From Candidatus Korarchaeum cryptofilum OPF8 (lineage in GTDB: Archaea; Korarchaeota; Korarchaeia; Korarchaeales; Korarchaeaceae), in assembly GCF_000019605.1 (NCBI RefSeq), contig NC_010482.1:840001-872000 (forward strand): a DNA stretch of 32,000 bases, read 5' to 3'. Positions 6,887-24,683 of this stretch are shown one piece after another (position 1 is the first letter of the stretch; each line of letters starts with the position of its first letter). The notes below the pieces were generated by a model. It was given only the letters and a program-made list of their open reading frames with translations. It had not been told where the DNA came from and did no database searches. The position numbers and the translations under genes were made by a program.

Positions 6887-7123
6887 ATGGAGGGGAAGGA
6901 GGGGGACGAGATCCAGGAGGCTGCATCCCTCTCCCTCAAGTTGAGTAAGGAGATTTGGGATTGCCTTTTGTTCGCAGCTTCTATATCCGAGGATTTCTCA
7001 GCTAAGTTCAGATCGGGTCCCTTCTCCCTCGAGATAAGGAAGAGGTACGATGGGAGGGTGGAAGTATCTTACTCCGTCAGGAGTATGGATGGCACCGAGA
7101 GGATAATCAGGAAAGTTTACTAG
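6887..7123 (+). CDS. Hypothetical protein (78 aa)
   Basis: ORF only. A TATA-like tttttaagc lies ~30 nt upstream. Confidence 0.35.
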   Translation: MEGKEGDEIQEAASLSLKLSKEIWDCLLFAASISEDFSAKFRSGPFSLEIRKRYDGRVEVSYSVRSMDGTERIIRKVY

Positions 7124-7180
7124 ACCCTGAAATGAGCTTTGCGATCATATTTTGACTATACATCGGAATCTTTATACCCA

Positions 7181-7990
7181 TTACACATAAAGGACACCTA
7201 TACCGTATCCACCCTGCTTCCAGTCTTCAACGAACTCTTTATAATGGAAATTCTGCTTAATTTCACTCCAGAATTTTGGTACGCCACCTACAAGTTCTGA
7301 CGGACCTGGAACTATATCATGAAAAGCTATTATTCCTCCCTTCCTAACAAGCGGGCCGTACATTTCGAAATCCCTTCTGACTCCTTCATATCTATGATCA
7401 CCATCTATGAATAAGAAGTCTATCTTCTCGCCACCTAGAATCCTCTTCAATTCTTCCAATGTCTCAGGATCATGTGAATCCTTCCTTATGAGATAGATTC
7501 TCTGCTTTCCTCTGGAAAAGGCTCTGTATAATCTCATTCTCCACTCCGGGTAACCGCCTCCAAATGGCCCTCCCGGGAGGTCTATACTTATGATCTTAGC
7601 CTCTGTATCTGCGACTCTCGTGAATAAAAATAGAGTCCCTCCTCCCGCTGTCCCTATTTCTAGAACTACTTTCGGTCTTAAATCCGCCAGTATCTCTAGA
7701 AGCTTAGTTATCTCATATCTGATCTGCGCGGGCTCTATAGATATCCCACAACATTTAAATGAAAATACGAAATCCACAGCATCATATATGTTATTGATAA
7801 AGCTAATTAAAATTTTAAATTTTATTAAGAAGAAAATGCGCTTAATAGCTTCATTATATTTAATAATAATGGTAAGTAACTTAAAATACACATATAATAC
7901 TGATTTTTTAATGAATGCTCTCACGCCCTCCTTCTGCAGTACCTCCAGCCCCCTGCTGAGCATTCCATGACCCCTGATCCAGATCTCCAT
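7181..7990 (-). CDS. Class I SAM-dependent methyltransferase (Methyltransf_24 / CmcI-like)
   Basis: VLEIGTAGGGTLFLF (SAM-binding G-rich loop), IISIDL, FLFIDGDHRYEGVRRDF and GGIIAFHDI fit this family. The N-terminal ~90 aa lie in very AT-rich DNA, so the start is uncertain. Confidence 0.7.
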   Translation of the reverse strand: MEIWIRGHGMLSRGLEVLQKEGVRAFIKKSVLYVYFKLLTIIIKYNEAIKRIFFLIKFKILISFINNIYDAVDFVFSFKCCGISIEPAQIRYEITKLLEILADLRPKVVLEIGTAGGGTLFLFTRVADTEAKIISIDLPGGPFGGGYPEWRMRLYRAFSRGKQRIYLIRKDSHDPETLEELKRILGGEKIDFLFIDGDHRYEGVRRDFEMYGPLVRKGGIIAFHDIVPGPSELVGGVPKFWSEIKQNFHYKEFVEDWKQGGYGIGVLYV

Positions 7991-8113
7991 ATAATTAAAA
8001 ATTAATGTTAATTATACCATGAGTCGGCTCCCCTGCAGTAGATTTTATGATAACTACGAGACCGCTTTACTCAGAAGAATATCTTAAAGGTTTTTAAGTA
8101 AGCACCTGATGAG

Positions 8114-9322
8114 ATGGACGTGAGTTTACAGAGAGATTGCAGCTCAGATAAGAGGAGCTTGAGGGTGCTTGTGATAGCTCCTAATGATCTGCAAGTTTAC
8201 GATGGCACTACAATGCGTTTGATAGGTAGTATAACTTCTGTCTGCAGCGATATTGAGATTTCCCTCGCATCTAAGAATTTAAATGAAGAATTGAAAAAAT
8301 GTGAACTTAAATGGATAAAAATGAAAAATATAAATCCCTTGACTAGATTAATTGTTATAACTTTTTACTCAATTAACAGATCCTTGGGGAAGAGCATAGC
8401 TCTCGATTTATTCGGGAGACAGGAGATCGATTGCGATCTCATACACGCTCATTGGATTCACTCGATCCCTTTAGCTAAGGGATTGAGTGAAGAAACTCCA
8501 CTTTTATTAGATCTACATGGTCTCTTCGAACTCACCCCTGTAGATCTGAGAGCCCCACACTTTTGGGCTTTCGTAAGGATTTCCAGGGTATTGGAGAGGA
8601 TCATCTTAAGTAATTCTAACAATTTCACTAACTTAATTGTCCCATCTCTTCCACTGAAGAATTACATTGCTGAGAGGTTCGGCATTCAGAAAGATAAGAT
8701 ATTCGTGATCCCGGACGGTTTGGATCTCGAAAAGATCCCTCCATATGAAGAGCGGAGTATAAGTTCGTTGAGGGAGGAGCTCGGATTGAATGGTGGATAT
8801 TTGATAGTATATGCAGGAACGCCCTCATTCTATCATGGCTTCTGGGATCTGCTCAAAGCCTTCAAGCTCGTCAGGAGGTATCTGGAAAACGTACATCTCC
8901 TTATAATAACTCCCAGACATATGAGGAAAAAATTTGATTCTGAAGGAATTATATTTATAGAAAATGTACCTAAGGAGCGTATATATAAATACCTTTATGC
9001 CTCCGATGCTCTAATATTACCGCATAGATGCGGTACGCAATTCGAGTACCTCCCTTCCAATAAACTCTTAGACTATATAGCGGTCGGCAAGCCTATAATC
9101 GCTTACGCTACATCCTCAGTCACTCAAGCTCTTGAACATTATCCGCTGAAGAAGATCGTTGAATGTAATAATCCTTCGGCACTCGCTCAAGGGATAATTG
9201 AGGCATTGAGGGACTTAAGAGGTGCTAGAATAGATGGTAGTAAAATTATTAAAGAGTATGATTGGAGGGTCATAGGGAAGAGGCTTCTGGAGGTATACAA
9301 GAATGTCCGCACCATCAGTTGA
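8114..9322 (+). CDS. Glycosyltransferase, GT4 / group 1 family
   Basis: It has the GT-B-type two-domain length. C-terminal ...LPSNKLLDYIAVGKPIIAY... resembles the E-x7-E region, and IVYAGTPSFYHG resembles the GT1 core. Confidence 0.75.
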   Translation: MDVSLQRDCSSDKRSLRVLVIAPNDLQVYDGTTMRLIGSITSVCSDIEISLASKNLNEELKKCELKWIKMKNINPLTRLIVITFYSINRSLGKSIALDLFGRQEIDCDLIHAHWIHSIPLAKGLSEETPLLLDLHGLFELTPVDLRAPHFWAFVRISRVLERIILSNSNNFTNLIVPSLPLKNYIAERFGIQKDKIFVIPDGLDLEKIPPYEERSISSLREELGLNGGYLIVYAGTPSFYHGFWDLLKAFKLVRRYLENVHLLIITPRHMRKKFDSEGIIFIENVPKERIYKYLYASDALILPHRCGTQFEYLPSNKLLDYIAVGKPIIAYATSSVTQALEHYPLKKIVECNNPSALAQGIIEALRDLRGARIDGSKIIKEYDWRVIGKRLLEVYKNVRTIS

Positions 9323-10337
9323 GGCCTCAGTCATATGGTTGAATTATAATAGCTCCAATTTCTTGAGAATAGCTCTGAAATCACTTGAATCCGTCCTGAG
9401 CATTGATTTAAATGGTTCATTAGAGGTGATATTAGTAGACAATGCCTCAACAGATGGTAGCTTTAAGGTTTTGAAGGAATTCGCTGAGAGGAAGAAGCCC
9501 AGTAATGTCAGATTAAAGACCGTAGAGTTAAGGAGAAACAAAGGTTACTCAGGAGGGATGAATGCTGGTTGGGATGCAATAAGCCCTAATTCTAAATATG
9601 TAGCCTTCTTGAATAACGATTTAATCGTGGAACCACGTTCTCTCAGCGAATTAATCGATTTCATGAGGAGCAGCGGAGTAAGTGCGGCAAGTGGTCTTGT
9701 CTATTACGGCGATGGGAGGACGATATATTCAGCTGGTTGCTTTGTAACAGAGCTTTGGGGCACTTCTGGTATCTGCATGACTTTGCCTGAGACCGAGTGC
9801 TCCACACTCTCTAGACCGCATTATGTCACCTATGCTGATGGATCTTATATGGTCGTGAGCGTTGAGGCCGTGAGGGAAGTTGGTTATTTGGGTAGACCTT
9901 TCATAGATGAAGCCTTCATTTTTTTAGATGACTATCTCCTTGGCCTGCTCCTATGGAATCGAGGGAAAAGAGTTGCATATTTTCCAGTTAAGGCAGGATA
10001 TCATTTTTCACATAAGACGATAAAACCCGTAATCTTTAATTATAGTATAAGAGCAGGAGCTGCCTTGAGTAGAATACTCAGGACTCGTTTCAGTAGAATC
10101 TCTCACCTTTATATGTCTGGAATACTTTTATTCCATATCTTCCTTAATGCCTTTAATAGGAAAATGGTATATGAGATAATAAGAAACTTCTTTGATGGCT
10201 ACAGGCTGGACGAGAGCGTAAGAGAGAAAATCGGTACACTGTCTCTCTATAGAGCTCCCTTCATCAGAATCACACCAGCTAAGTTTCGTAAGCCTGCTAT
10301 ACCTACACATAGCGATTTAGTCTACTATGGCGAATAA
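9303..10337 (+). CDS. Glycosyltransferase family 2
   Basis: SVIWLNYNSSNFLRIALKSL...EVILVDNASTDGS...YSGGMNAG...LNNDLIV is the classic GT2 (GT-A, D-x-D-like) pattern. It overlaps the upstream GT4 gene by 20 nt. Confidence 0.8.
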   Translation: MSAPSVEASVIWLNYNSSNFLRIALKSLESVLSIDLNGSLEVILVDNASTDGSFKVLKEFAERKKPSNVRLKTVELRRNKGYSGGMNAGWDAISPNSKYVAFLNNDLIVEPRSLSELIDFMRSSGVSAASGLVYYGDGRTIYSAGCFVTELWGTSGICMTLPETECSTLSRPHYVTYADGSYMVVSVEAVREVGYLGRPFIDEAFIFLDDYLLGLLLWNRGKRVAYFPVKAGYHFSHKTIKPVIFNYSIRAGAALSRILRTRFSRISHLYMSGILLFHIFLNAFNRKMVYEIIRNFFDGYRLDESVREKIGTLSLYRAPFIRITPAKFRKPAIPTHSDLVYYGE

Positions 10338-10390
10338 GCTACGAGCGACGCCCTAATTCATGAATTAAAAAATAACTAATACTTGTCAAT

Positions 10391-11323
10391 ATGGTGAAAA
10401 GATCGATGATCCCTTTATACACGCCGATCTTTATTATTAAAAATTTTTATAGAGAACTTCGCCCTGGCAGGTTGAGGAGTACCATGACAGTAGCGATCAT
10501 AGTGACTCATGAAAGTGATAAAAAAAGATTTCCTATTGTTTTAAGAAATGCTTCTCTTCAAACAGATCGCGTTATAATAGTTGATAATGCTTCGAGTAAT
10601 TCCGGAGAATTAAAAACTTACTGTAGTTCTGTTAAAAATTGCGATTTCATAGAAGTTGGATTTAACTCAGGGATCGGGCATGCTTTAAATATTGGTGTGA
10701 TCCATGCTTTAAGGTATAATCCTGACTGGATCTTATTGCTGGATGATGATACTATATTGCTCGATGGTAGCATTGAAAAAGCCCTAAGATCCTTAGATTC
10801 TCTACCGAGGAGCATGAGGGAGAAAGTTATGGTCGTCTCTCTAGGATCTCAGATAGGAGATTGCTCTCTGAAACGTGCCCTCTCAGGGACGTTCTCTGGA
10901 TCTTTAGTCAGGGCTGAGGTATTTAAAAAGATAAAGTTTAGGGAAAACTTCTTCCTCGATCAAGCTGATTTCGACTTCTACTCTAGGGTTTGGGAGCACG
11001 GTTATATAGCATTACTCGTCGATTGCAAATTGATAGATCATCCAATAGGCAAGCGGGAGTGGATACCTGTACTGTCAAAGCTTAGAGGTGAAATGCTTCA
11101 ATATGAGCCTCCGTGGAGGTATTATTACATTGTGAGGAACTCGACGATACTCCTCATAGAGAGAAGGCTTTATATTGGATTCTACTTGAGTCAACTAGTC
11201 AGATGGGGACTAAGGATCCTTTTCAAAGACGGTTTTTTTGCATTTATAAAACCTCTAGCTCTCGGACTGTTCCATGGGTTGCTACGCATGGAGGGTTATA
11301 TGGATAAACGAGTTTTCTCGTAA
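10391..11323 (+). CDS. Glycosyltransferase family 2 (rhamnosyltransferase-like)
   Basis: VAIIVTHESD...RVIIVDNASSNSG...GFNSGIGHALNIG...LLLDDDT. The true start may be ATG 10484 (MTVAIIV), which is preceded by gaggag. Confidence 0.75.
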   Translation: MVKRSMIPLYTPIFIIKNFYRELRPGRLRSTMTVAIIVTHESDKKRFPIVLRNASLQTDRVIIVDNASSNSGELKTYCSSVKNCDFIEVGFNSGIGHALNIGVIHALRYNPDWILLLDDDTILLDGSIEKALRSLDSLPRSMREKVMVVSLGSQIGDCSLKRALSGTFSGSLVRAEVFKKIKFRENFFLDQADFDFYSRVWEHGYIALLVDCKLIDHPIGKREWIPVLSKLRGEMLQYEPPWRYYYIVRNSTILLIERRLYIGFYLSQLVRWGLRILFKDGFFAFIKPLALGLFHGLLRMEGYMDKRVFS

Positions 11324-11590
11324 AAAGGATAAAATTTTACAAAAAAATACATAATAAGAGATAGAGATATCATCTGATGCTTGGCTCTTATGATCGTGAA
11401 AAATATTAAGTGTAAATCATTTAATAAACTCTGTATTAAAATTTATAAATTCTGTGATCTTTTATAAATTATGATAATCCGCTGATCCCCTATTTACTGA
11501 TGATAGGAATTCCTTAGAAGTCAACCTTCTGCGAAAGTTTTTATTTTGTTTGATATTCCATCTCGATAATTAATGAGGTGAAATATACAA

Positions 11591-12653
11591 ATGAAGGGCC
11601 TCGTTCTCGCTGGAGGTGAGGGCTCCAGGCTCAGGCCTCTGAGCTTCTCCATACCTAAGCATTTAATCCCGCTGCTCGGTAAGGCTGTCATAGAGTATCC
11701 CATAGACCATTTACTCGAGGCTGGCATAAGGGAGATCGGAGTAGTGATAGGGTACTTAGGCTTCATGATACAGGATTACCTCAGCAGATCCCGTCCCAAT
11801 GCGTCTATAAGCTATATAAAGCAGGAGGAGAGGCTCGGAATAGCTCATGCGATCTATAGAGCTATAGAAGAGGGATTTATAGATGAGGAATTCGCAGTCT
11901 ATCTGGGAGATAACATAATAGAGAGCGGTGTCGGGAGGCACATCAAAAGCTTCGAGGAGAGCGATTTCGATTCTTACGTACTGCTATATAGGGTTAGAGA
12001 TCCATCGAGATTCGGGGTAGCCATCCTGAGGGATGGTAAAGTGGTCAAGTTAGTTGAGAAACCGAAGGAACGCATATCCGATCTCGCTGTCATAGGTTTC
12101 TATATGTTCAAGGATCCTGAGTTAGTAGCCCGAGCATTCAGGACGCTCAAGCCATCGTGGAGGGGTGAGTACGAGATAACTGAGTTGATACAATGGTTCA
12201 TAGATAACGGTTATAGAGTGGGGTATGATTTCGTGAACGGTTGGTGGAAGGATATAGGGACTCCTGAGAGCTTATTGGATGCTCTCTACTTCCTGATAGA
12301 TCGCATTGAGAACTCTATTAAGGGAGAAGTGAGGAGGGATTTCTCAGGGAGGGTATTCGTCGAAGACGGGGCTATCGTCGAAGGAAGTATATACGGTCCA
12401 GCTTACATCGGGAGGAACTCGTATGTAGCGAAGGAAGCTGTAATAGAGCCCTTTACTTCCATAGAAGCTCATGCGAGAGTTGAATCCGGGTATCATATCT
12501 AGGAGCCTCGTATTGAACAATGCCCGCTTGAAGCTCAATAAAACGAGGCTCATTAATAGTATAATCGGGAGGTATAGCGTGATAGAGTCCACTAGAGAAT
12601 TGCACGGCGATGTAGAATTTATTATAACAGATTACAGTATCGTGAGGCTCTGA
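11591..12653 (+). pseudogene. rmlA: Glucose-1-phosphate thymidylyltransferase (archaeal long form with C-terminal left-handed beta-helix), split by a 1-nt frameshift
   Basis: ORF 11591..12502 starts MKGLVLAGGEGSRLRPLSFSIPKHL (NTP-transferase signature) and stops inside the hexapeptide-repeat domain. ORF 12471..12653, one frame over, continues that domain (IISRSLVLNNARL...INSIIGRYSVIES...FIITDYSIVRL). Deleting one G from the GGG run at 12488-12490 restores ...VESGIISRS.... Confidence 0.75.
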
Positions 12654-12662
12654 GGGGATAGT

Positions 12663-13658
12663 ATGAAGCTCTTGATAACTGGTGGGGCGGGCTTCATGGG
12701 GAGCAACCTCGTTAGGTTCATAGCGGAGACTACGGATTTCGAGATAATGGTGTACGATAAACTGAGTTATTCGGGGAGAATTGAGAATATAGAAGATCTT
12801 ATTGAGAGGAAAAGGATAAGATTTGTCCGAGGGGATATATGCGATGAAGAGATGCTCACTTCCGTAATCGAGGAATTCCGCCCTGACGCTATAGTGAACT
12901 TAGCGGCTGAAACCCATGTCGACAGATCAATAAATGAACCATCTCCGTTCATACAGACGAATATTTTCGGTGTATATACAATATTGGAAGTGATGAGGAG
13001 GAGGGATATCCCCCTGCTCCTCCATCTATCGACAGACGAGGTATACGGGGACCTCAGTGAGCTAGGTATAGAAGCGGATGAGTCCTCTAACCTAAACCCA
13101 TCCAGCCCTTACTCAGGGAGCAAGGCCGCTGGAGATCTCCTGATTAAGGCTTACTCGAGGACTTATGGCCTGAAGTATAAGATCGCTAGGCCATGCAACA
13201 ATTACGGCCCGTATCAGCACCCAGAGAAGTTGATACCCAGGACCATCATAAGGTTATTACAAGGTAAGCCCGCTACGATATACGGTGACGGATCTCAGGA
13301 GAGGGATTGGATCCACGCATTGGATAATGCTAGGGCATTGCTCACGATACTAACTGAGGGGCTCAGTAATGAGATCTACAATATATGCAGACACAATTAC
13401 GCTAGTGTGAGGACTATCGTGGAGCTTATAACTAAGATAATGGGGAAGGACCCTAGGAGAGATATTATATACGTTAAAGGTAGGCCTGGTGAGGACCTCA
13501 GGTACGCTATGAAGTGCGATAAGCTGTTAAATTTAGGGTGGAGACCGATTTACGATCTTGAGACCGGTTTGAGGGATACACTGGAATGGTATTTAAATAA
13601 TGAGTGGTGGTGGAAGCCGCTACTGGATCACTACGTATTATCGGATGCACCCTGGTGA
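12663..13658 (+). CDS. rmlB: dTDP-glucose 4,6-dehydratase
   Basis: TGGAGFMGSN Rossmann motif, STDEVYG, and PYSGSKAAGDLL (the Y-xxx-K catalytic motif). The length is ~330 aa. Confidence 0.9.
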   Translation: MKLLITGGAGFMGSNLVRFIAETTDFEIMVYDKLSYSGRIENIEDLIERKRIRFVRGDICDEEMLTSVIEEFRPDAIVNLAAETHVDRSINEPSPFIQTNIFGVYTILEVMRRRDIPLLLHLSTDEVYGDLSELGIEADESSNLNPSSPYSGSKAAGDLLIKAYSRTYGLKYKIARPCNNYGPYQHPEKLIPRTIIRLLQGKPATIYGDGSQERDWIHALDNARALLTILTEGLSNEIYNICRHNYASVRTIVELITKIMGKDPRRDIIYVKGRPGEDLRYAMKCDKLLNLGWRPIYDLETGLRDTLEWYLNNEWWWKPLLDHYVLSDAPW

Positions 13659-13662
13659 GAGC

Positions 13663-14571
13663 ATGCTGATACTAGTGACAGGTGGGACGGGCCTGTTAGG
13701 TTGGCACTTAGTAAATAAGTTAGCGAGGGATTATCGAGTGATCGCGACTCACCATATCAATAGACCGCCATCCGAAGACCAACGAGTTGAGTGGGTCTAC
13801 TTGGACCTGCTAGATTACGAGGGGATAAAGCGGATAATAGGGGATCTGAGACCTGAGATAGTCATCCATACAGCAGCATACACGGATGTCGATGGTTGTG
13901 AGATTGACAGGAAGAGAGCTTTCGATGTGAATTATTTGGCCACGAAATCTCTCGCTAGAGCATGCCGGGGAGTATGCGAATACTTCATTTATATCTCAAC
14001 AGATTACGTCTTCGATGGGGAGAGGGGACATTACTCCGAGGAAGATCTTCCATACCCAATCAATTATTACGGTTTGACTAAACTCCTGGGAGAAGTAGCC
14101 ACTACAGATCTCTTAGATAAGAGCCTAGTCATCAGAACTAGTGGAATATATGGCTGCAGCCCTGGAGGTAAGAGGGGATTCGCTCTCAGCTTATTGGAGA
14201 AGCTCTCCAGGGGAGATGAAGTAATGGCCTTCACTGATCAGTACTTATCACCTACTTACGCTCCGCATTTAGCATCTAATATATTGAAACTCCTCGAGTT
14301 GAGGGTAAATGGTTTCCTACATATAGCTGGCGATAGAGCTTCGAGATATGAATTCGCAATAGCAGTAGCGAGGGAGTTAGGAGCTGATGAGAGATTAGTT
14401 AAACCCTCCTCAATGGATACTTCATCACTCAGAGCTCGTAGGCCCCGAGATTCGAGTTTAGATACGAAAAAAGCTAAGGAGGAACTCGGATTACCTTTTA
14501 AATCTATGCGTGACTGTATTAAGGAATTTATAAGGGATTGTGGTGAGGGGAATGCCGTTCAAGAGTTTTAA
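13663..14571 (+). CDS. rmlD: dTDP-4-dehydrorhamnose reductase
   Basis: MLILVTGGTGLLG, ISTDYVFDG and YGLTKLLGE (Y-xxx-K). ATG 13663 sits right after the rmlB stop, so the longer listed start 13600 is unlikely. Confidence 0.85.
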   Translation: MLILVTGGTGLLGWHLVNKLARDYRVIATHHINRPPSEDQRVEWVYLDLLDYEGIKRIIGDLRPEIVIHTAAYTDVDGCEIDRKRAFDVNYLATKSLARACRGVCEYFIYISTDYVFDGERGHYSEEDLPYPINYYGLTKLLGEVATTDLLDKSLVIRTSGIYGCSPGGKRGFALSLLEKLSRGDEVMAFTDQYLSPTYAPHLASNILKLLELRVNGFLHIAGDRASRYEFAIAVARELGADERLVKPSSMDTSSLRARRPRDSSLDTKKAKEELGLPFKSMRDCIKEFIRDCGEGNAVQEF

Positions 14572-15094
14572 GAGACTCGAGATACCAGATTTATTATTAA
14601 TAGATCATGTTTTATTTCCCGATTCGAGAGGTTTCTTTACAGAGCTTTACAAGAAATCGGATTTCACAGGGAATGGCATCCCGCACGACTTCGTCCAAGT
14701 GAACTTGAGCTATTCGAGGAAGGGCGTAGTTAGGGGGCTTCACTATCAACTGAAGCCGATGGAACAAGGGAAGTTAGTATACGTTATAAGTGGTAAAGTT
14801 TTTGACGTTGCAGTCGATATTAGAAGGGGTTCAAAATGGTTTGGAAGGTATGTTAGTGTATTGCTCGAGCCCGGCCTCGCTCTCTGGATACCACCTGGAT
14901 TCGCGCACGGTTTCCAAGCCCTAGAGGATACGTACTTCCTCTACCTCGTGACGAAGGAGTACTCACCTCAGCATGAGAGATGTATTAAATGGGATGATCA
15001 GGAGATAGGGATCGAGTGGCCTCTGAAGGAGGCTGTATTGAGTGAGAGGGACTCTAAATGCCCGCCTCTCAAATCATGCGAGACGAATTTTTGA
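14552..15094 (+). CDS. rmlC: dTDP-4-dehydrorhamnose 3,5-epimerase
   Basis: FPDSRGFFTELY, RGLHYQ, KLVYVISGKVFDVAVDIR and PPGFAHGF are cupin RmlC motifs. ATG 14552 is preceded by ggtgagggga. Confidence 0.85.
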   Translation: MPFKSFKRLEIPDLLLIDHVLFPDSRGFFTELYKKSDFTGNGIPHDFVQVNLSYSRKGVVRGLHYQLKPMEQGKLVYVISGKVFDVAVDIRRGSKWFGRYVSVLLEPGLALWIPPGFAHGFQALEDTYFLYLVTKEYSPQHERCIKWDDQEIGIEWPLKEAVLSERDSKCPPLKSCETNF

Positions 15095-15219
15095 AAATAT
15101 TCTCCCTCTTCAAGCTATTCATCTTCTTAACTCATTCCCTTTTCATGTTCTCTAACTATTTTACTTCAGAATGAGGAACGGATCCACTATAGTTCATCGC
15201 ATACATATGGCAATCCTAA

Positions 15220-16737
15220 TTAGGGCCGGGAGGATAGTTCCATTATTTTCCTCTCATAGGACAGTATCAGATCCGCAATCCTCCCTATCAGCTTTATTCG
15301 GGAGAGGACCTCCCTTAAGAATTCCAAATCAGCTTGCTCGAGTAATATCAATGGGATTAAGGATATGTAGAGGAGGAAGTAGAGAGGGAGGAGTATTATC
15401 CTGAGAGGAGAAATTAAGAAATGCCCTATCGCGATCACTGGCACTGCCGAGACTATCGAAGCTACGTATACTTTAATCGAGCTCTTGATGTCGATAGATG
15501 CCCTGAAATCCCTCAGTATGAGGAGGGAGAGTGAAGTTGATGCTATACTCGAGAATATTTGAGCTATTATTATACCGGTTATCCCATAAATATTCGTTAA
15601 TAAATAAGATAGTGGAAGAAATATTGAGGCACCAAAGGATGATATAATTAGAATTACCTTAGTTCTTCCCAAACTGCCTAAGAGGGGCCCTATTGAGAGG
15701 GATCCTATACCTACCAAGAGGTAGCTAAGCAGGAATAATGATAGGTAAAATGGTGTCAGTATATACTTATCTCCGAAAAATATTTTTACAAAATCTACTG
15801 AGAATATCATTAATGATACCGTGATAGGTACTATTAATAGAGAGGAGTACTTCACTGAGAGCTTGAACATCCTCTCGATACCTCCCTCGAGAGTCCTCGA
15901 GAAAGTCGAGAGGAGAGAGGGGCTTATGGAAGATGTCACTACCCCGAGCACAGATGAAAAAGTGGCTGCTGCATAATAGTTCCCTATCTCGAAGTCCGTG
16001 AATGAAGACAGGAGTAATGTAGTGTACTGGTTCACGGCTATCGCTATTATCGAGGAGAGGTGGAGGGGTAGGCTGTAGCTGAGCATTGAGGATAGGCTCC
16101 CGCTCGCCCTCCTGCTCAAGAAACCTCTTACTAAAAGGAGGCTCGCGATAGCAGCGACTATATAACCGGATAAATGACCGAATACTGCACCGAATATACC
16201 GAGACCAGATAAAACTAGTGTCGTTGACACTAGGAACTTAGATGTGGATTGGAAAAGCGGTACTGTAGAACTTCTCTCGGACATCCCGAGACCTAAGAGG
16301 ATCGAGGAAGATAGATTGCAAACAGTTACAAAGGGAATGGCTATCGCAGCCAACCTTACATAATTGCAGAGGTCGGGCCTCCTCAATACATAAGATGAAT
16401 AGGGCTCCGCTATAGCCACACCGATTAATGAGAGAAGAAGACTCAGTGAGAGGGAGATCCTAACAGTGAATGAAGCGATTTCCTTAGCTCTCTCATCCCC
16501 TCTCAATAGAGCCATGGTTCTCATTAAGAAAGGGGGTATCCCCATGTCAGAGAACACTACTAGGAGGGAGAATAAGGCGAGAGAAAGCGAGTAGAGTCCA
16601 TATCTATCAGGTCCAAGCAATCTAGCTAGTAAAATCGAGTTTATTGATAAAATAGCTGTTGAGATGATATTTCCGGACATCAGGAAGATGCTCCCTCTTA
16701 CAGCTTCAGCCATGGCATCCCTCAGATTTTCCTCCAC
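15220..16737 (-). CDS. Polysaccharide/oligosaccharide flippase, MOP superfamily (Wzx/RfbX-like)
   Basis: A 505-aa polytopic protein with roughly 12-14 hydrophobic segments. The N-terminal ...GSIFLMSGNIISTAILSINSILLARLLGPDRYGLYSL pattern is typical of polysaccharide biosynthesis protein families. It is adjacent to the rml and GT genes. Confidence 0.75.
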   Translation of the reverse strand: MEENLRDAMAEAVRGSIFLMSGNIISTAILSINSILLARLLGPDRYGLYSLSLALFSLLVVFSDMGIPPFLMRTMALLRGDERAKEIASFTVRISLSLSLLLSLIGVAIAEPYSSYVLRRPDLCNYVRLAAIAIPFVTVCNLSSSILLGLGMSERSSTVPLFQSTSKFLVSTTLVLSGLGIFGAVFGHLSGYIVAAIASLLLVRGFLSRRASGSLSSMLSYSLPLHLSSIIAIAVNQYTTLLLSSFTDFEIGNYYAAATFSSVLGVVTSSISPSLLSTFSRTLEGGIERMFKLSVKYSSLLIVPITVSLMIFSVDFVKIFFGDKYILTPFYLSLFLLSYLLVGIGSLSIGPLLGSLGRTKVILIISSFGASIFLPLSYLLTNIYGITGIIIAQIFSSIASTSLSLLILRDFRASIDIKSSIKVYVASIVSAVPVIAIGHFLISPLRIILLPLYFLLYISLIPLILLEQADLEFLREVLSRIKLIGRIADLILSYERKIMELSSRP

Positions 16738-16832
16738 GAGCTCACCTCTGTGAAGCGATCCTGCTATGAATTCAACGCAATATTAAAGAATTATAGCTCC
16801 AAGTTGTGCTAATTATGGAGAAGCTCTATTCT

Positions 16833-17081
16833 TTAGGATTCACTCCCCTCTAAATCCTTCAGAGACTCCTCCATCTCTTCTATAGGTTTCGGGGGAGGCG
16901 TTCTCACTAACACATACCCTATGAAAGCTAGAACACCAAAGACACCAGCTACCGCGATAAATCCCGTGAGCTGGAGTAGAAAAGTCGACCATTCAGTGAA
17001 GAAAACGATCCAACCATAGGTAATGATGATTGAGATGCTTAATACTATCATACAGACTCCTATTATGGTATCTCTACCCAT
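16833..17081 (-). CDS. Small membrane protein (2 predicted TM helices, acidic C-terminal tail)
   Basis: The ORF has two clear hydrophobic stretches followed by PPPKPIEEMEESLKDLEGSES. Confidence 0.45.
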   Translation of the reverse strand: MGRDTIIGVCMIVLSISIIITYGWIVFFTEWSTFLLQLTGFIAVAGVFGVLAFIGYVLVRTPPPKPIEEMEESLKDLEGSES

Positions 17082-18308: not shown

Positions 18309-18635
18309 TCATATTGCTCCTATCAGCCTGAGGAGTATCGGGATTACAGTCGCACCCCATATCGTCAGAATGATTCCTATGGTCCACTTGAAGTCGCTGT
18401 GCACCTCATTTCTCAGCTGAGCCATCTCTCCCCTTAACTGTGTTATCTCATTTCTCAGCTGAGCTATTTCACTCTTGAGATCCTTTATGTCCTCCTTTTT
18501 TGCTACATCAGGCAGGATTGAATTTATCATGAAGAGTCTCACATCCGGCTCAGATACGATCAGCTCCGCGAGCCTCATCTTCAGCTTCTTATTCGCTTCT
18601 ATCTCCCCTATTACCCTCTCGCCGAGAGATTCCAT
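18309..18635 (-). CDS. Coiled-coil protein with C-terminal TM anchor (DUF1640-like)
   Basis: This is the C-terminal 108 aa of listed ORF 18309..19001: MESLGERVIGEIEANKKL...EIAQLRNEITQLRGEMAQLRNEVHSDFKWTIGIILTIWGATVIPILLRLIGAI. It has its own TATA-like box 26 nt upstream of ATG 18635. The architecture parallels ORF 24174..24683. Confidence 0.5.
   Translation of the reverse strand: MESLGERVIGEIEANKKLKMRLAELIVSEPDVRLFMINSILPDVAKKEDIKDLKSEIAQLRNEITQLRGEMAQLRNEVHSDFKWTIGIILTIWGATVIPILLRLIGAI
18408..18470 (-). repeat. 3 x 21-nt in-frame tandem repeat (heptads E-I/M-A/T-Q-L-R-N/G)
   Basis: Read directly. Units 18408-18428 and 18450-18470 match at 19/21 positions. The middle unit is more diverged. 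Confidence 0.8.
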
Positions 18636-19364
18636 CGTTAAATAGAGAAAGGAGAGAATATAAACCTTAACTTTCCCAGAAGTTAGCTTCCCAATAGATC
18701 TGAAAGACTCCTTACTAGTGTGAGCTCCGCCAGATTCCAATGCTCCGGATTTCTCGGCAGGATCAACTCTCTTCCAAGATCTTCCGAGCTTCCGAAACAT
18801 CCTCTCAATGTCCGATAACCTCGCTCTCACATCCTCAGGATCGAACTTCGCCTCGTGGAAGCCCCAGACGTGTAACGTCCACGCCCTATCCCATGCAGCG
18901 CTGAACAAATCCCCCAATCTCTCAGAGATCCTCAGAACAGCCTTCTCAAGCTTCCCAATGCATCTACCGCTCCTCTCAACATCCTCGAGTATATCCCTCA
19001 AATTGAAGTGAGTCGCGAGCGCTTTAGTAACTTCCTCCGCAGCCTTGTAGAGCTTCTCACTAGCCTGAACAGGATCCTTATCGATGAGGTTCTTTCTATC
19101 GCTGAAATTCGATCAAAGAGATCTCCAAATACATTAGCAAGGTCCCTCAACGGAGGGGTAAGAGCCCTTAGATATAGCTGGAGCATCGCTCTATCAACTC
19201 GGAGATCCTTACCGTATCTGCTATTATGGGCACTGTTATATCTAATCTCCCTTGAGAGAGTAATCCTTTGCCCTGTCCCCGTAAAGGGAGGCGAGGATAA
19301 CCATTAAACGCGTTCTCGAGATTCTCAATGATCTCCAAAACATCTCGGGAGGATCAATGGGCAT
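18636..19364 (-). pseudogene. PaREP1-family gene broken by several frameshifts; its 3' part is fused in-frame to the coiled-coil gene
   Basis: The pieces lie in different minus-strand frames. They are MPIDPPEMF... (ATG 19364), EIIENLENAFNGYPRLPLRGQGKGLLSQGRLDI..., ...LRDLANVFGDLFDRISAIER, then KNLIDKDPVQASEKLYKAAEEVTKALATHFNLRDILEDVERSGR...AAWDRAWTLHVWGFHEAKFDPEDV. The last stretch strongly resembles the PaREP1 core (DPVQASEKLYKAAEE, LHV-GFHEA). Confidence 0.5.
18657..18665 (-). promoter_or_regulatory. TATA-like box (GTTTATATT, minus sense) internal to the long listed ORF
   Basis: It is centred ~26 nt upstream of ATG 18635. This supports an independent, probably leaderless transcript for the coiled-coil gene. 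Confidence 0.35.
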
Positions 19365-20745: not shown

Positions 20746-21264
20746 CTAGTTATTGAGTATTCTCAGGTCCGCTCTCGATAAGGCTCCACTGCCTATTACA
20801 CCTTCACAGCACGTATAAGTCTTCATGCTGGGATTAGGTTCCCAGCCTCTTAGGATCTCGATATCCATTCTCCTAGCGACGTGCGATAGGTCCTTATCTC
20901 CAGTAAAGATCTACTTTGAGCTTCAACGCTAGCCATGGTCGAATCAACGAAGCTAAGGGTCCTACTTGCTAATTCGGGGCTTTCCCTCAGCACTCTATCG
21001 CTCTCGACCTTAATCCTAGCTGACTCCACGTAATCTATTATCTTAAGCTCAACGACCCTGAAGTACTCAGAGACCAGCGTTACTACTTCTTCCATGCTCT
21101 TGAAGGTGGGAATCCTACCCCTTAACCAGTGAACGCACAGCTGTAGACCACCGTGACCGGTAGATATCCTATGACCTCACCCCTCCTAACCCGAGTTAGG
21201 ACCTCCGCCTCCTTCACGAGCTCTCCATATGCCATCGCTAGTATCGCGTATCTATGACTACAAC
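20746..21264 (-). pseudogene. vapC: PIN-domain toxin (VapC-like) disrupted by at least three frame changes
   Basis: Minus-strand pieces lie in different frames. They are VVVIDTRY* (from ~21264), MAYGELVKEAEVLTRVRRGEVIGYLPVTVVYSCAFTG*, HWLRGRIPTFKSMEEVV...LSFVDSTMASVEAQSRS... (listed ORF 20850..21095), then IFTGDKDLSHVARRMDIEILRG.... The motifs -IDT-, -D-S-A and TGD-D are PIN hallmarks. It lies directly downstream of and overlaps vapB. Confidence 0.5.
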
Positions 21265-21491
21265 TTCGCTCTCCTCCTCCAAAATGCTTCCTCCTCCTTA
21301 TCTAGCTCCTCCTCAGCGCTACCAGTACAGCACCTCCAGACCTTATCCCAGAGATCGAGCGGCTCTAGTATTATCCTACCTTCCTCAACTCTCACCTCTA
21401 GGAGGGTCCCATCCCTTATGCCGAGAGCATCCCTAATACCCTTGGGTATGGAGGATGTCCTTCTACGGACCTTAACGACTTCCCGCTGCAA
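21258..21491 (-). CDS. vapB: AbrB/SpoVT-type antitoxin (VapB-like)
   Basis: VVKVRRRTSSIPKGIRDALGIRDGTLLEVRVEEGRIILEPL is a textbook swapped-hairpin AbrB/MazE DNA-binding domain. The start is TTG 21491, with a ggagctgatc SD-like motif and a cttataagc TATA-like box upstream. Confidence 0.7.
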   Translation of the reverse strand: MQREVVKVRRRTSSIPKGIRDALGIRDGTLLEVRVEEGRIILEPLDLWDKVWRCCTGSAEEELDKEEEAFWRRRAKL

Positions 21492-21614
21492 GCTTCCCCG
21501 ATCAGCTCCTTCTTTGGTTAGCTTATAAGTTTAACCGAGAGTTAAACAATTGAAGAGCAGCCGTTCCGAGTGGATTGCGGGGGATTTATGATTATTTTAA
21601 CACTCTTAGTCCCT

Positions 21615-21639
21615 TCTTCGGCACTAGGGTGAAGTAGGC
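21615..21639. repeat. Orphan copy of the 5' end of the Arch_ATPase coding sequence
   Basis: tcttcggcactagggtgaagtaggc (21615-21639) matches tcttcggctccagggtgaagtaggc (20519-20543) at 23/25 positions in the same orientation, 1096 bp apart. In minus sense it reads AYFTLVPKK against MAYFTLEPKR at the gene start. The copy has no start codon or gene body. Confidence 0.6.
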
Positions 21640-21909
21640 TGAACTCGAGACCACTATCGTCGATATCCTAAAACTTTTTATCATAAGCTTAATTAGTAGC
21701 ACTCTCTCCATGCTGAAGCTCTGGAGAGGGCTCTCTTCCTCTATTTTTCATGCGGGTTCATTAGACATGTAGCGAGTGACCCCTTCATTAAGAGATCGAT
21801 ACCTCTGGAAATGCCGATTACCTGCCATATCTGAGAGTCATAAGGGACTTTGGAACTGTTTCTCTCTAGCGTAAAGTTTATCAACCTAGCATAAGCTCCC
21901 ATTAATTGA

Positions 21910-23079
21910 ATGCCATTAGAGACCGTTAAGCTCACCGCAAGCTTTAAGCTGGACGGATCTTTTCCAGAGAGCCTCTTCTCGACATACAGAGAGGTCTTAG
22001 GACAACTGCTCGACTACGCTTGGGAGAAGGGGGTCACGAGCTTCAAGAGGCTTAAGGCGGAGAAGTACTGCGAGCTGAGGGCGAGGTATCCTAGCCTTCC
22101 GTCGCATTACATCTACACGGCCTGTCAGATGGCTTGCTCAATATACAAGAGCTTTAGGAAGCTCAAGAGGAGGGGCGCGACAAAGGCCGAGAAGCCCGTC
22201 TTCAAGAAGGAGGTCATAATGCTGGACGACCACTTGTTCAGCCTCGACCTTGAAGGCTGGGAGGCCTCGATAGCCGTCGGAGGCAGCAGGGTTAGGCTGA
22301 AGTTGCTCCACGGGACGTACCACGAGAAGTTCAAGGGCATGAGGGTCGGCCAAGCTTGGCTCGTAAAGAGGGGGAACGATCTCTATTTGAAAGCCGTCTT
22401 CTCCAAGGTCGTCGAGGTGGCGGAGATGGACGAGAGAGCGGTGGCCGTTGACGTGAACGAGAACAACGTCACCTTTGGCACTATGGAGCGCGTGGTGAAC
22501 GTGGAGACCAGGGAGAGGATCATAAGGACAGCCTACTTCCTCAAGCGTAGGAGGCTCCAGTCCAAGCCTAGGCTGAACGAAAAGCCCTTGCTGGCGAAGT
22601 ACAGAGGCAGGGAGCGAAGGAGAGTTGAGGCCATTTACCACGAGGTCGCCAACCGGATAATCGATGAAGCGAAGAAGGTGAAAGCCTCGACCATCGTGCT
22701 GGAGGATCTCACGAATATAAGGGAGAGGATTAAACGGTCAAAAGAGTTGAATGGCAGGCTGAACAGGTGGAGCTTCAGGAAGCTTCAGCGGATAGTGGAG
22801 TACAAGGCGAAACTCGCCGGTCTGAACGTCGTCTATGTCGAAGCTAGAGGGACTTCTAGCCTGTGCCCGATATGTGGGGAAAGGTTAAGCCCGAATGGGC
22901 ACAGGAGGTTGAAGTGTAGGTGCGGATTGGAAGAGGATAGAGACGTCGTAGCCGTGAAGAACCTGCTCCGCAAGTACCGGATGGATGTGGGGGCTTCGTC
23001 CGTTCACCCCGAAGGCCCTCCCATGACGACCGAGAGGGATGAAGAATACGAGGGGGGAAGGGATGAAAGTTTATTCTAG
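21910..23079 (+). CDS. tnpB: TnpB / OrfB RNA-guided endonuclease-like protein (RuvC + zinc finger)
   Basis: 389 aa. RuvC-I is AVAVD(181)VNENN, RuvC-II is TIVLE(265)DLTNI, the Zn finger is C319PIC322...C336RC338, and RuvC-III is EEDRD(345)VVAVKNL. The N-terminal region is typical of archaeal OrfB proteins. Confidence 0.9.
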   Translation: MPLETVKLTASFKLDGSFPESLFSTYREVLGQLLDYAWEKGVTSFKRLKAEKYCELRARYPSLPSHYIYTACQMACSIYKSFRKLKRRGATKAEKPVFKKEVIMLDDHLFSLDLEGWEASIAVGGSRVRLKLLHGTYHEKFKGMRVGQAWLVKRGNDLYLKAVFSKVVEVAEMDERAVAVDVNENNVTFGTMERVVNVETRERIIRTAYFLKRRRLQSKPRLNEKPLLAKYRGRERRRVEAIYHEVANRIIDEAKKVKASTIVLEDLTNIRERIKRSKELNGRLNRWSFRKLQRIVEYKAKLAGLNVVYVEARGTSSLCPICGERLSPNGHRRLKCRCGLEEDRDVVAVKNLLRKYRMDVGASSVHPEGPPMTTERDEEYEGGRDESLF

Positions 23080-23100
23080 ACCAGAACGGTACCAATAATT
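22930..23100 (+). ncRNA. Predicted omega-RNA (reRNA) scaffold overlapping the tnpB 3' end
   Basis: This is placed by analogy with characterised TnpB systems. The only direct observation is an imperfect hairpin at 22991-23018 (gggcttcg / cgaaggccc, one bulged G) followed by G-rich tracts. The extent and 3' end are unknown. Confidence 0.25.
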
Positions 23101-23244
23101 TTCGAGTGGACCGGGGAGACCGATGTAAGTGAGGAGGAGCTCGCGGAAAAATTGGCCGAAATACTTCTGAAGGGGGGCATTAAGGCGAAGCTGGCTCCAG
23201 GATTCAGCGCAGTCAAGGCGGTGGAGGGGAACAGGGAAGATTAA
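23080..23244 (+). pseudogene. 5'-truncated small ORF (possible antitoxin C-terminal half) translationally coupled to the PIN gene
   Basis: 54 sense codons (TRTVPIIFEWTGETDVSEEELAEKLAEILLKGGIKAKLAPGFSAVKAVEGNRED) with no ATG/GTG/TTG start. They begin right after the tnpB TAG in the same frame, and the stop overlaps the PIN start as TAATG. Confidence 0.3.
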
Positions 23245-23741
23245 TGGTGTACATCGACACAAGCGTTTTGGTCGCATACCACTTCAAGGAAGAGGAGCGC
23301 CATCAAAATATCAAAAGCATCGTAGAAGAGCTTAGAAAGGCAAACAACTTTTCGTATCACCCTTAACGAAGCTTTTCCCAAATCTCTAGGAACTTACCGA
23401 AGTACAGACTTCCTTCGCGTCTAAGGAGGCTCAGCGAAAGGACTAGGATCTACATACTCGTGGAACAAATTCTGAAGGATTTGAGTCCTGTAGTTGTGAA
23501 AGATGAGCCTCAGATAAAGAAGTTCAATGAGATTGAAGCCTTTCATATATTTCGAGAAGCTATCGATCATGCGCATAATCTCAAGCTCAGGACCCTCGAT
23601 CTCCTGCACATCATTTATGCCTTAAATCTGGCTAGGAAAGGCCTTTTAGACTCTCTCATAACCCTTGACGAGGGAATAATGGAGAAGAAGGACATCTTAG
23701 AGGAGCTTGGCCTGAAGGTCTATGGGCCGAAAGTGCCCTAG
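23244..23741 (+). pseudogene. vapC: PIN-domain toxin (VapC-like) with in-frame TAA at 23364-23366
   Basis: MVYIDTSVLVAYHFKEEE...NNFSYHP*RSFSQISRNL...(GTG 23460) EQILKDL...LRTLDLLHIIYAL...LITLDEGIMEKKDILEELGLKV. The frame is the same throughout. IDTS, LD-LH and T-D are the PIN acidic-residue contexts. Confidence 0.55.
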
Positions 23742-23945
23742 TAGTAAAGTCTCCTTGAACTCCTCCTGTAGCCTCAGGTTTATCTCGAGCGCTTCACTGG
23801 CATTAGCATCTATTGTGACATAATAGATGTAGCCCCAATCCGGCTCATATTCCGCTTCAATTTTATATGGTAGCCTGGTCAACTTCCTCAGCTCCTGTGC
23901 TATTTCCCTGCTGATGTGCTCCTTTTCAACCTCAGATAAGCTCAA
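23697..23945 (-). CDS. Hypothetical protein (82 aa)
   Basis: An ORF with a TTG start. It is convergent with the PIN pseudogene and overlaps it by 45 nt. I recognise no family. Confidence 0.35.
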   Translation of the reverse strand: MSLSEVEKEHISREIAQELRKLTRLPYKIEAEYEPDWGYIYYVTIDANASEALEINLRLQEEFKETLLLGHFRPIDLQAKLL

Positions 23946-24173
23946 GGTATCGATCTCTATACAACTTCCGTGAACTTTATATGCTTAGAGGTCACATCCG
24001 GTCCGCTGAACAAGCTCTCGATACAGGCAGAGGGTGCGGACCTTCGGGATACCTCACCAAATCAGAATTCCAGCTATATGCCCCAGTGCATTTAGCAATT
24101 TCGTTCCCGGGATTCGTTAGCAGTATCCCTAGGGGGCCTTAGCGAGAGTATTTCACAGAAATGAAAAATTAAA

Positions 24174-24683
24174 TTAGAAGAGTATCCTCAATATCAGCGG
24201 AACTAGTATAGTTGAGGCCAGCGTGATCACTATAGCGACTAAAGATGCTTTAACGATGCCGTAAAGGTCGCTTATCCTCTCATTTATGCTATCCAATCTG
24301 GTATCTATGTAAGATTTAAGCTCAATCACTCTCGCATCCACATAAGATTTCAGCTCGGCCTCCAGCTTCTCCATGTTCTCCTTAGTAGCTTTTCTCAGCG
24401 CTTCTATATCCTCTCTAAGGGCCTCTATATCTTCTTTAGTCGCTTTTCTCAGCGCTTCTATATCCTCCTTAGTTGCCTCTCTAAGATCCTCTATATCCTC
24501 CTTAGTAGCTTTTCTGAGGGCCTCTATATCTTCTTTAGTCGCCATCTCCCTTGATAATGCCAGAAGTATTGCTCTCCTGAGCTCCCTATTCCTTAGAACC
24601 TCTGGTATGAGCTCCTCAGCTAAAGCTCTCCTCAGCTCCTCATCCTTCCTCAACTCCTCCAATAGCTGCCTGCCGTTTGACAT
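24174..24683 (-). CDS. Coiled-coil protein with 11-residue tandem repeats and C-terminal TM anchor (DUF1640-like)
   Basis: ATKEDIEALRK / ATKEDIEDLRE / ATKEDIEALRK / ATKEDIEALR / EDIEALRK / ATKENMEKL, then ...ISDLYGIVKASLVAIVITLASTILVPLILRILF. A TATA-like ctttttatatt lies ~30 nt upstream of the ATG. Confidence 0.6.
   Translation of the reverse strand: MSNGRQLLEELRKDEELRRALAEELIPEVLRNRELRRAILLALSREMATKEDIEALRKATKEDIEDLREATKEDIEALRKATKEDIEALREDIEALRKATKENMEKLEAELKSYVDARVIELKSYIDTRLDSINERISDLYGIVKASLVAIVITLASTILVPLILRILF
24363..24542 (-). repeat. In-frame tandem array of 33-nt units (about 5.5 copies, some near-identical)
   Basis: Read directly. Unit 24510-24542 and unit 24414-24443 differ at one position over 30 nt. 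Unit 24444-24476 and the partial unit 24390-24413 are identical over 24 nt. Confidence 0.85.

Follow-up and report, generated by a model that had tools for sequence, protein, structure and literature searches.

The closest known counterparts of the element analyzed here are the IS607 insertion sequences, which have a GG core dinucleotide and, in the case of the Clostridium botulinum CboIStron, encode a serine-recombinase TnpA together with a TnpB that has a TGGG target-adjacent motif (TAM) (Zedaveinyte et al., 10.1101/2023.11.20.567912). Serine-recombinase-associated TnpBs are a recognized group, TnpBs are very common in TACK archaea, and thermophilic archaeal TnpBs have already been characterized, among them SisTnpB1 of Sulfolobus islandicus, shown to be an RNA-guided nuclease (10.1101/2023.03.06.531077, PMC11043419). 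We analyzed a 32,000-nt stretch of the genome of Candidatus Korarchaeum cryptofilum OPF8 (NC_010482.1, positions 840,001 to 872,000 of the forward strand; hereafter, the window, to which all coordinates refer) and conclude, with considerable confidence, that it contains, at about 21847-23089, an element derived from an insertion sequence of the IS607 family that is no longer autonomous and comprises a tnpB gene and an overlapping predicted omega-RNA.

The locus shares with the C. botulinum system the serine-recombinase TnpA partner (here, in relatives of the element), the GG core dinucleotide at the junctions, a scaffold that ends at the right-end (RE) boundary, a G-rich motif 5' of the left end (LE; the TGGG TAM in C. 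botulinum, mostly TGGGG in the present family) and a predicted target that is the empty donor or sister allele. It differs in its archaeal, thermophilic host, the lack of a group I intron, the deletion of tnpA in the present copy, and a predicted scaffold that lies almost wholly inside the open reading frame (ORF), with a 10-nt non-coding tail and, throughout the clade, no guide-proximal stem. The ISDra2 TnpB of the IS200/IS605 family (PDB 8H1J, 8EXA) resembles the present protein in its fold (template modeling (TM) score ~0.6), the D-E-D triad, the zinc finger and the position of the omega-RNA over the 3' end of tnpB. The profile match, however, reaches only E = 2.5e-6 over residues 189-365, and ISDra2, unlike the present element, is a transposon of the Y1 type that has a TTGAT TAM and works through single-stranded DNA. 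Among solved structures, the TnpB is most similar, in structure as well as in sequence, to Cas12f proteins (AsCas12f, 8J12; OsCas12f, 9NZQ), but the present locus lacks a CRISPR array and a tracrRNA, and it is the site of insertion that determines the guide. SisTnpB1 is likewise a TnpB of an archaeal thermophile but comes from another host phylum and is described as IS200/IS605-type; it is set beside the present TnpB by description.

The sequence-only reading that preceded this work anticipated a useful new example of an archaeal thermophile OMEGA system. The locus is indeed a well-delimited addition, an archaeal thermophilic IS607-type TnpB with exact ends and a comparative omega-RNA model, although the novelty is smaller given that thermophilic archaeal TnpBs have already been characterized, and no new kind of system is revealed. 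Beyond this, the locus usefully offers a target site that is empty in nature, a natural polymorphism for the presence or absence of the element, an RNA variant that lacks the stem, and covariation between coding and RNA sequence, which shows how strongly an embedded RNA can shape a protein C-terminus, with codon and amino acid choices covarying such that an RNA stem is kept. These features open to testing the TAM and guide requirements, the need for a guide-proximal stem, and homing in archaea.

The tnpB gene (21910..23079, plus strand) is an unbroken ORF of 389 codons and encodes a bona fide TnpB that is intact, no residue being missing from either the RuvC triad or the zinc finger. The protein scores well above the cut-offs of NCBIfam NF040570 (guided_TnpB; 151.5 bits against 100) and Pfam PF07282 (TNB; 66.1 against 26.3). 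The RuvC triad consists of D181 (AVAVDVNENN), E265 (IVLEDLT) and D345 (EEDRDVVAV), and a C4 zinc finger (C319, C322, C336, C338) is located between RuvC-II and RuvC-III; among 34 homologues with 61-88% identity, D345 and all four cysteines are invariant, whereas D181 and E265 are at least 90% conserved. Profile comparison with solved structures aligns the three acidic residues to the RuvC-I, -II and -III positions of the Cas12f structures, D181 falling on the Asp of the RuvC-I 'gvDmG/gvDlG' motif. The counterparts in this alignment include the residues known as E324 and D401. An AlphaFold2 model of the TnpB (mean per-residue confidence, pLDDT, of 83) matched AsCas12f, OsCas12f and ISDra2 TnpB in a Foldseek search, with E-values of 1e-13 to 1e-18 and TM scores of 0.59-0.65; residues 362-389 form a non-conserved, low-confidence tail that is predicted to be disordered. 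The gene call itself is known, given that the identical protein is already public as 'RNA-guided endonuclease InsQ/TnpB family protein [Candidatus Korarchaeum cryptofilum]'; no paper on TnpB in Korarchaeum turned up in a search of the literature. The GC content at third codon positions of tnpB is 0.75, compared with 0.43-0.63 in nine neighboring genes. The ratio of nonsynonymous to synonymous substitution rates (dN/dS) between tnpB and its relatives is 0.09-0.27, which implies purifying selection in the history of the clade but not activity of the present copy. The unbroken ORF, the catalytic residues, the zinc finger and the elevated third-position GC content had all been called from the sequence and hold up in these comparisons; the possibility that this is a domesticated, inactive TnpB was rejected because the catalytic residues are intact.

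The ends of the element were set by comparison with 39 archaeal loci that encode relatives and with six element-free contigs from sister strains. When 21001-24200 was compared with the 39 loci by blastn, DNA similarity in unrelated genomes began at 21908-21910 and stopped at 23087-23090, and a separate block of LE similarity covered 21844-21914. About 30 loci share the right end ..CAGAACGG|, with different DNA beyond it each time, which places the right end at 23089|23090, 10 nt past the TAG stop codon and within the interval of 23080-23120 foreseen from the sequence; the terminus GAACGG (23084..23089, plus strand) ends with the GG (23088-23089) that is the core dinucleotide shared with the target. 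The coding sequence downstream is thus unrelated to the element, as had been supposed, and the downstream ORFs are not its cargo. The left end (21847..21909, plus strand) is fused directly to the tnpB start codon and contains the motif GAACTGTTTCTCTCTAGCGTAAAGTTTAT (21853-21881), which is conserved in at least 14 independent loci and probably represents the promoter (BRE/TATA) of the lost tnpA; the promoter and terminator scan that we ran employs a sigma-70 model and is not applicable to archaea. In the same loci, the flanks are alike 3' of a G-run and diverge 5' of it; this run is mostly TGGGG, and its counterpart here is GGG (21844..21846, plus strand), corresponding to the GG core or G-rich TAM-like motif 5' of LE in the relatives.

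Assignment to the IS607 family follows from the relatives. In at least 13 of these, an ORF of about 200 codons lies between LE and tnpB, overlapping the tnpB start, and encodes a protein with an HTH_17/MerR domain and a Resolvase domain (PF00239) that matches NCBIfam NF033518, 'IS607 family transposase', with 227 bits; the layout of these elements is LE, tnpA (MerR-like helix-turn-helix plus serine recombinase), tnpB, RE. In the 32,000 nt of the window, searches for serine and Y1 transposases and for a second TnpB were negative, in agreement with the earlier call of a non-autonomous element without a nearby tnpA. The earlier assumption of a Y1 (IS200/IS605) type did not survive: the presence of a serine-recombinase tnpA in the relatives and its absence from the window identify the present copy as a tnpA-deleted IS607 derivative rather than an autonomous member of the family. 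Internally deleted tnpA genes or their remnants occur in five of the loci (L004, L005, L008, L012 and L044 in our numbering). The relatives read LE...ATGCCGGA(tnpA)...(G/A)TGCCATTAGAG(tnpB), and in the window, the LE leader and the ATGCC of tnpA join directly to codon 2 of tnpB; judging from this junction, a clean deletion between the two start regions, across their TGCC microhomology, eliminated tnpA. Lacking TnpA, this copy would be unable to move on its own. Both junctions carry GG: the RE ends ..GAAC-GG, the empty site reads ..AAGGA-GG-TACC.., and the G-run precedes LE, a match to the GG core of IS607 elements and the TGGG TAM of CboTnpB described in the literature.

Scanning metagenomes with the right flank yielded the six element-free sister-strain contigs (L045-L050; 96-99% identical), in which the window segment 23088-23751 is in the opposite orientation. 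These contigs contain a continuous ORF of about 115 codons, reading ...EEFKE|VPIIFEW..., the first gene of a PIN operon, which in the window is split in two: the 3' half is at 23090..23244 on the plus strand, with the C-terminal half of the protein at 23090..23241, whereas the 5' half (residues 1-65) is now on the opposite strand (23752..23945, minus strand), where the N-terminal half of the protein is read from 23945 to 23752. From 23752 on, the host sequence is in its ancestral orientation. The element had been placed at the 5' edge of this toxin-antitoxin-like operon on inspection of the sequence; instead, it interrupts the first gene and borders an inversion of 0.66 kb. No family in Pfam or NCBIfam matched the ~115-aa protein. 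Joining the flanks of the element in order to provide ORF 23080-23243 with a start codon failed, and the empty-site contigs showed that the gene is split by the inversion.

The empty target, in the orientation of the element, is TTCAAGGAGG|TACCAATAATTTTCGAGTGG, with the insertion at GG (..AAGGAGG|TACC..), and the other inversion breakpoint is CATAAGGG|ACTTTGCTGC; both breakpoints are G-rich sites. At the right breakpoint, TAAAGTC (23745..23751, minus strand) is the inverted copy, with one mismatch, of the GACTTTG at 21846-21852. The orientation of the segment in the element-free contigs and the presence of GACTTTG at both breakpoints indicate that the arrangement in the window arose by insertion at GG plus the 0.66-kb inversion, the ends of which are the right end of the element and a G-rich site. 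Two orders of events are compatible with this arrangement: either the element entered the ~115-aa gene first and its LE junction later recombined with an LE-like site, or the events followed the opposite order, involving the RE side. Accordingly, the exact LE boundary is ambiguous by 6-7 nt, given that the outermost nucleotides of LE (21846-21852, GACTTTG) are also present in the element-free strains. No terminal inverted repeat between LE and RE is evident, although the inversion and the 7-nt GACTTTG, which stands at both ends in opposite orientations, confound the junctions. The inversion probably would have originated by recombination of one element junction with a look-alike GG site, the proposed partners being the LE junction and the host site CATAAGGGACTTTG.

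Several lines of comparative evidence, which include synonymous constraint, covariation and nucleotide conservation across reading frames, predict an omega-RNA scaffold of about 230 nt at 22860..23089 (plus strand), embedded in the last ~75 codons of tnpB and extended by the 10-nt non-coding tail; its 5' end is putative. Identical amino acids are encoded by identical codons at a frequency of about 0.45-0.55 along tnpB, but of 0.79 between residues 321 and 335 and of 0.83-0.86 between residues 351 and 375, and dS is halved in the conserved 3' part of the gene. The C-terminal tails of the relatives vary in length, frame and stop position, and some of the ORFs overrun the element end, while the underlying DNA is conserved; in the same vein, the protein tail is disordered and non-conserved while its DNA is conserved. 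A similar increase in synonymous-codon identity (to 0.73) is seen over codons 1-15 of tnpB (21910-21954), which overlap the 3' end of tnpA in the intact relatives.

Stem 1 pairs 22860-22868 (CCTGTGCCC) with 22897-22905 (GGGCACAGG) on the plus strand and emerges both from explicit pair counts and, independently, from RNAalifold. In the alignment, 91% of the cells pair, one pair occurring as AU (10 sequences), GC (7) and CG (5); the covariation score is 0.25, compared to 0.15 in shuffled alignments (0 of 500 reach the observed value) and at most 0.07 in slid controls. In the protein, this stem manifests as covariation between the third base of the Leu318 codon and residue 331 (H/Y/R/Q/W). Further downstream on the same strand, two helices are likewise backed by pair counts and RNAalifold: helix A (22988-22992 with 23007-23011) shows GC to CG swaps in 4-6 sequences per pair and carries CCGTTC (23000-23005) in its loop, and helix B (23016-23021 with 23052-23057) shows changes on both sides in five of its six pairs. 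The loop hexamer CCGTTC is exactly complementary to the terminal GAACGG, so that the two form a candidate pseudoknot; in 29 sequences (96.6% paired), the two hexamers show no variation or almost none, which leaves no room for covariation and hence no support from it. For helices A and B and the candidate pseudoknot combined, 96% of the cells pair, nine pairs are changed on both sides, and none of 500 shuffles reaches the score. Such a guide-adjacent pseudoknot would be a further point of likeness to the published structures of ISDra2 TnpB.

The loop of helix B (23022-23051) contains a 20-nt insertion that resembles a duplication of GGGATGAA and is present only in the window, L004, L042 and L043; it shifts the reading frame such that tnpB stops at TAG 23077, as opposed to TGA in the relatives, and about ten disordered residues are added. 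In 19 more distant relatives, a guide-proximal stem 3 of 7-12 bp is located between GAAG and CAGAACGG, with 124 of 133 cells paired and up to five pair types per position; because this length-variable terminal hairpin lies beyond the MAFFT alignment, its pairing was scored by script. On comparative evidence, then, the locus has the hallmark of the TnpB class, a structured scaffold over the 3' end of tnpB that ends at the right-end boundary. The overlap of the guide RNA scaffold with the 3' end of tnpB, proposed from the sequence, is thus supported by the covariation and synonymous constraint found there, whereas two of the accompanying details need revision. The arms of the hairpin proposed at 22991-23018 (22991-22998 and 23010-18) are complementary in the window, but in 29 relatives only 58.9% of the cells pair and covariation is below that of shuffles, so this hairpin was rejected as a conserved fold, the supported elements being stem 1, helices A and B, and the candidate pseudoknot. 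The right end is compact in that the non-coding tail is 10 nt, but the scaffold is about 230 nt long and lies inside the ORF. The covariance-model scan for an omega-RNA that had been recommended matched no Rfam family: neither the scan of the whole window at the gathering thresholds nor an E-value scan of 21700-23300, which gave chance matches alone, detected an omega-RNA family.

Under the TnpB/omega-RNA paradigm, the guide would start at 23090, and the predicted guide segment TACCAATAATTTTCGAGTGG (23090..23109, plus strand; a length of 20 nt is assumed) is the stretch of host DNA that adjoins the right end on its 3' side. In the six element-free contigs, exactly this sequence comes after ..TTCAAGGAGG. 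By analogy with established TnpB and IS607 biology (10.1101/2023.11.20.567912; PMC10278001), the tnpB mRNA would be transcribed from the TATA-like motif of LE, and TnpB would process the 3' part of its own mRNA into the omega-RNA, with the adjoining host sequence, from 23090 onward, as the guide. The complex of TnpB with the omega-RNA would then cut DNA in which TACCAATAATTTTCGAGTGG is adjacent to a G-rich TAM, which corresponds to the uninterrupted allele of the sister strains. Such cleavage would serve homing and maintenance, roles shown for bacterial IS607 and IS605 elements (10.1101/2023.11.20.567912).

Several observations weigh against this reconstruction. The expression of the omega-RNA and TAM-dependent cleavage are predicted from comparison and analogy; the TAM at the original target would be GGAGG, compared to the usual TGGGG of the family; and the outer 6-7 nt of LE are indistinguishable from host sequence. 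Stem 3 is essentially absent in the clade of the window (nine loci, with 3-4 of 7 positions pairing), and the RNA may be impaired without it. A single-sequence fold of 22855-23089 is no more stable than those of shuffled sequences (z = -0.99). The hexamers of the candidate pseudoknot never vary, and their conservation could reflect a TnpA site at the DNA level rather than RNA pairing. Finally, the insertion is also present in a sister strain (L043, 98.6% identical), where a deletion of 787 bp (21496-22282) has removed LE together with one third of tnpB from its 5' end, so this copy may be in decay.

The competing explanation that fares best, albeit still rather unlikely in our estimate, is that the element is a dead relic, the ORF being intact only through recency, and that, with no TnpA, a rearranged LE junction and an omega-RNA short of its guide-proximal stem, it no longer supports either transposition or RNA-guided cleavage. 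The insertion is polymorphic among strains that are 96-99% identical, which makes it young, and the absence of TnpA from the window and of stem 3 from the omega-RNA region, along with the deletion in the sister strain, fits such a scenario. However, all catalytic and zinc-binding residues are retained, the dN/dS values of 0.09-0.27 speak for selection, and the RE without stem 3 is found in nine loci of different archaeal phyla, mostly next to full-length tnpB and with all flanks different, which indicates that this variant has spread. The same element clade (76-91% DNA identity) is present in L004, L005, L007, L008, L036 and L044, always with different flanks, and the metagenome-assembled genomes (MAGs) to which the loci of the clade belong are labeled Thaumarchaeota, Geocrenenecus, Jordarchaeum (Asgard), Methanodesulfokora and Archaeoglobales; the recurrence of one clade in several archaeal groups with different flanks points to wide horizontal spread among hot-spring archaea.

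A miniature element of about 215 bp, with the LE motif and RE but no genes, was also detected in a Methanomethylicota MAG (L042:185-400); its RE is 99% identical to window 22980-23087 over 108 nt and ends CAGAACAG rather than ..CGG. It represents either a very recent cross-phylum transfer or a binning error.

At the other extreme from a relic, the TnpB could still be active with a pared-down omega-RNA that dispenses with the guide-proximal stem and has just the 10-nt non-coding tail, acting in populations of hot-spring archaea as a homing or allele-killing drive, with the inversion as a by-product of the IS607 recombinase or of the repair of a TnpB-induced break at a look-alike GG site. Because the intact allele of sister Korarchaeum strains contains the predicted guide sequence, such a drive would follow if TnpB is active; in its entirety, we regard this scenario as distinctly improbable.

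Alternatively, the conserved nucleotides at the 3' end could be nothing but the DNA binding site of the TnpA recombinase at the right end, with no RNA involved. In favor of this, neither the terminal CAGAACGG nor the internal CCGTTC shows any variation, and IS607 excision in bacteria requires about 60 bp of RE (10.1101/2023.11.20.567912). Compensatory changes, which a recombinase site in double-stranded DNA does not require, are nevertheless seen in stem 1, helices A and B and, in the distant relatives, stem 3, and the constraint extends 230 nt inward, so we consider a pure DNA site quite improbable. The remaining alternative, a solo TnpB of the IS200/IS605 (Y1, IS1341-like) type, draws on partial matches to NCBIfam IS200_TnpB and TIGR01766 and on the classification of solo tnpB elements as IS1341-type, but can be rejected almost outright because the relatives of this TnpB carry serine recombinases directly upstream of and overlapping tnpB (at least 13 cases) and no Y1 transposase beside it, the GG at the element junctions counts against the Y1 type, and the score with NF038281 (IS200_TnpB) is 43.6 against a cut-off of 425.

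Downstream of the split gene, the PIN-domain (VapC-like) gene (23244..23741, plus strand) is a pseudogene in the window, with one in-frame stop codon (TAA, 23364-23366) in a locally frameshifted stretch. The window version scores 23.0 bits, just below the Pfam cut-off of 23.6, whereas the intact L049 allele reaches 27.3, so that of the two, the sister allele alone clears the threshold for a PIN domain. The ~115-aa gene overlaps the PIN start and matches no antitoxin family. Intact copies of the PIN gene are found in L045, L048 and L049, and the in-frame stop of the window is also present in L046, L047, L050 and L043; because the first three of these are element-free, pseudogenization is independent of the insertion. 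The impression from the sequence that most accessory genes in the neighborhood are broken was overstated: breakage was verified for two genes, PIN with its single in-frame stop and the ~115-aa gene that is split in two.

Upstream of the element, the 463 bp at 21318-21780, which include part of a MazE-like gene (21258-21491, minus strand), are kept in L049, and about 20 bp are found in their place in L046, L047, L048 and L050. Farther away, the region 7000-17000 has a GC content of 0.35-0.47 and encodes a methyltransferase, three glycosyltransferases, dTDP-rhamnose pathway enzymes and a polysaccharide flippase-like protein; this glycosylation cluster may be a separately acquired island. Two genes on the minus strand, 24174-24683 and 18309-19001, encode proteins with coiled-coil repeats of the KEDIEALRKAT type and a C-terminal hydrophobic helix, the second of which also contains a PaREP1 domain.

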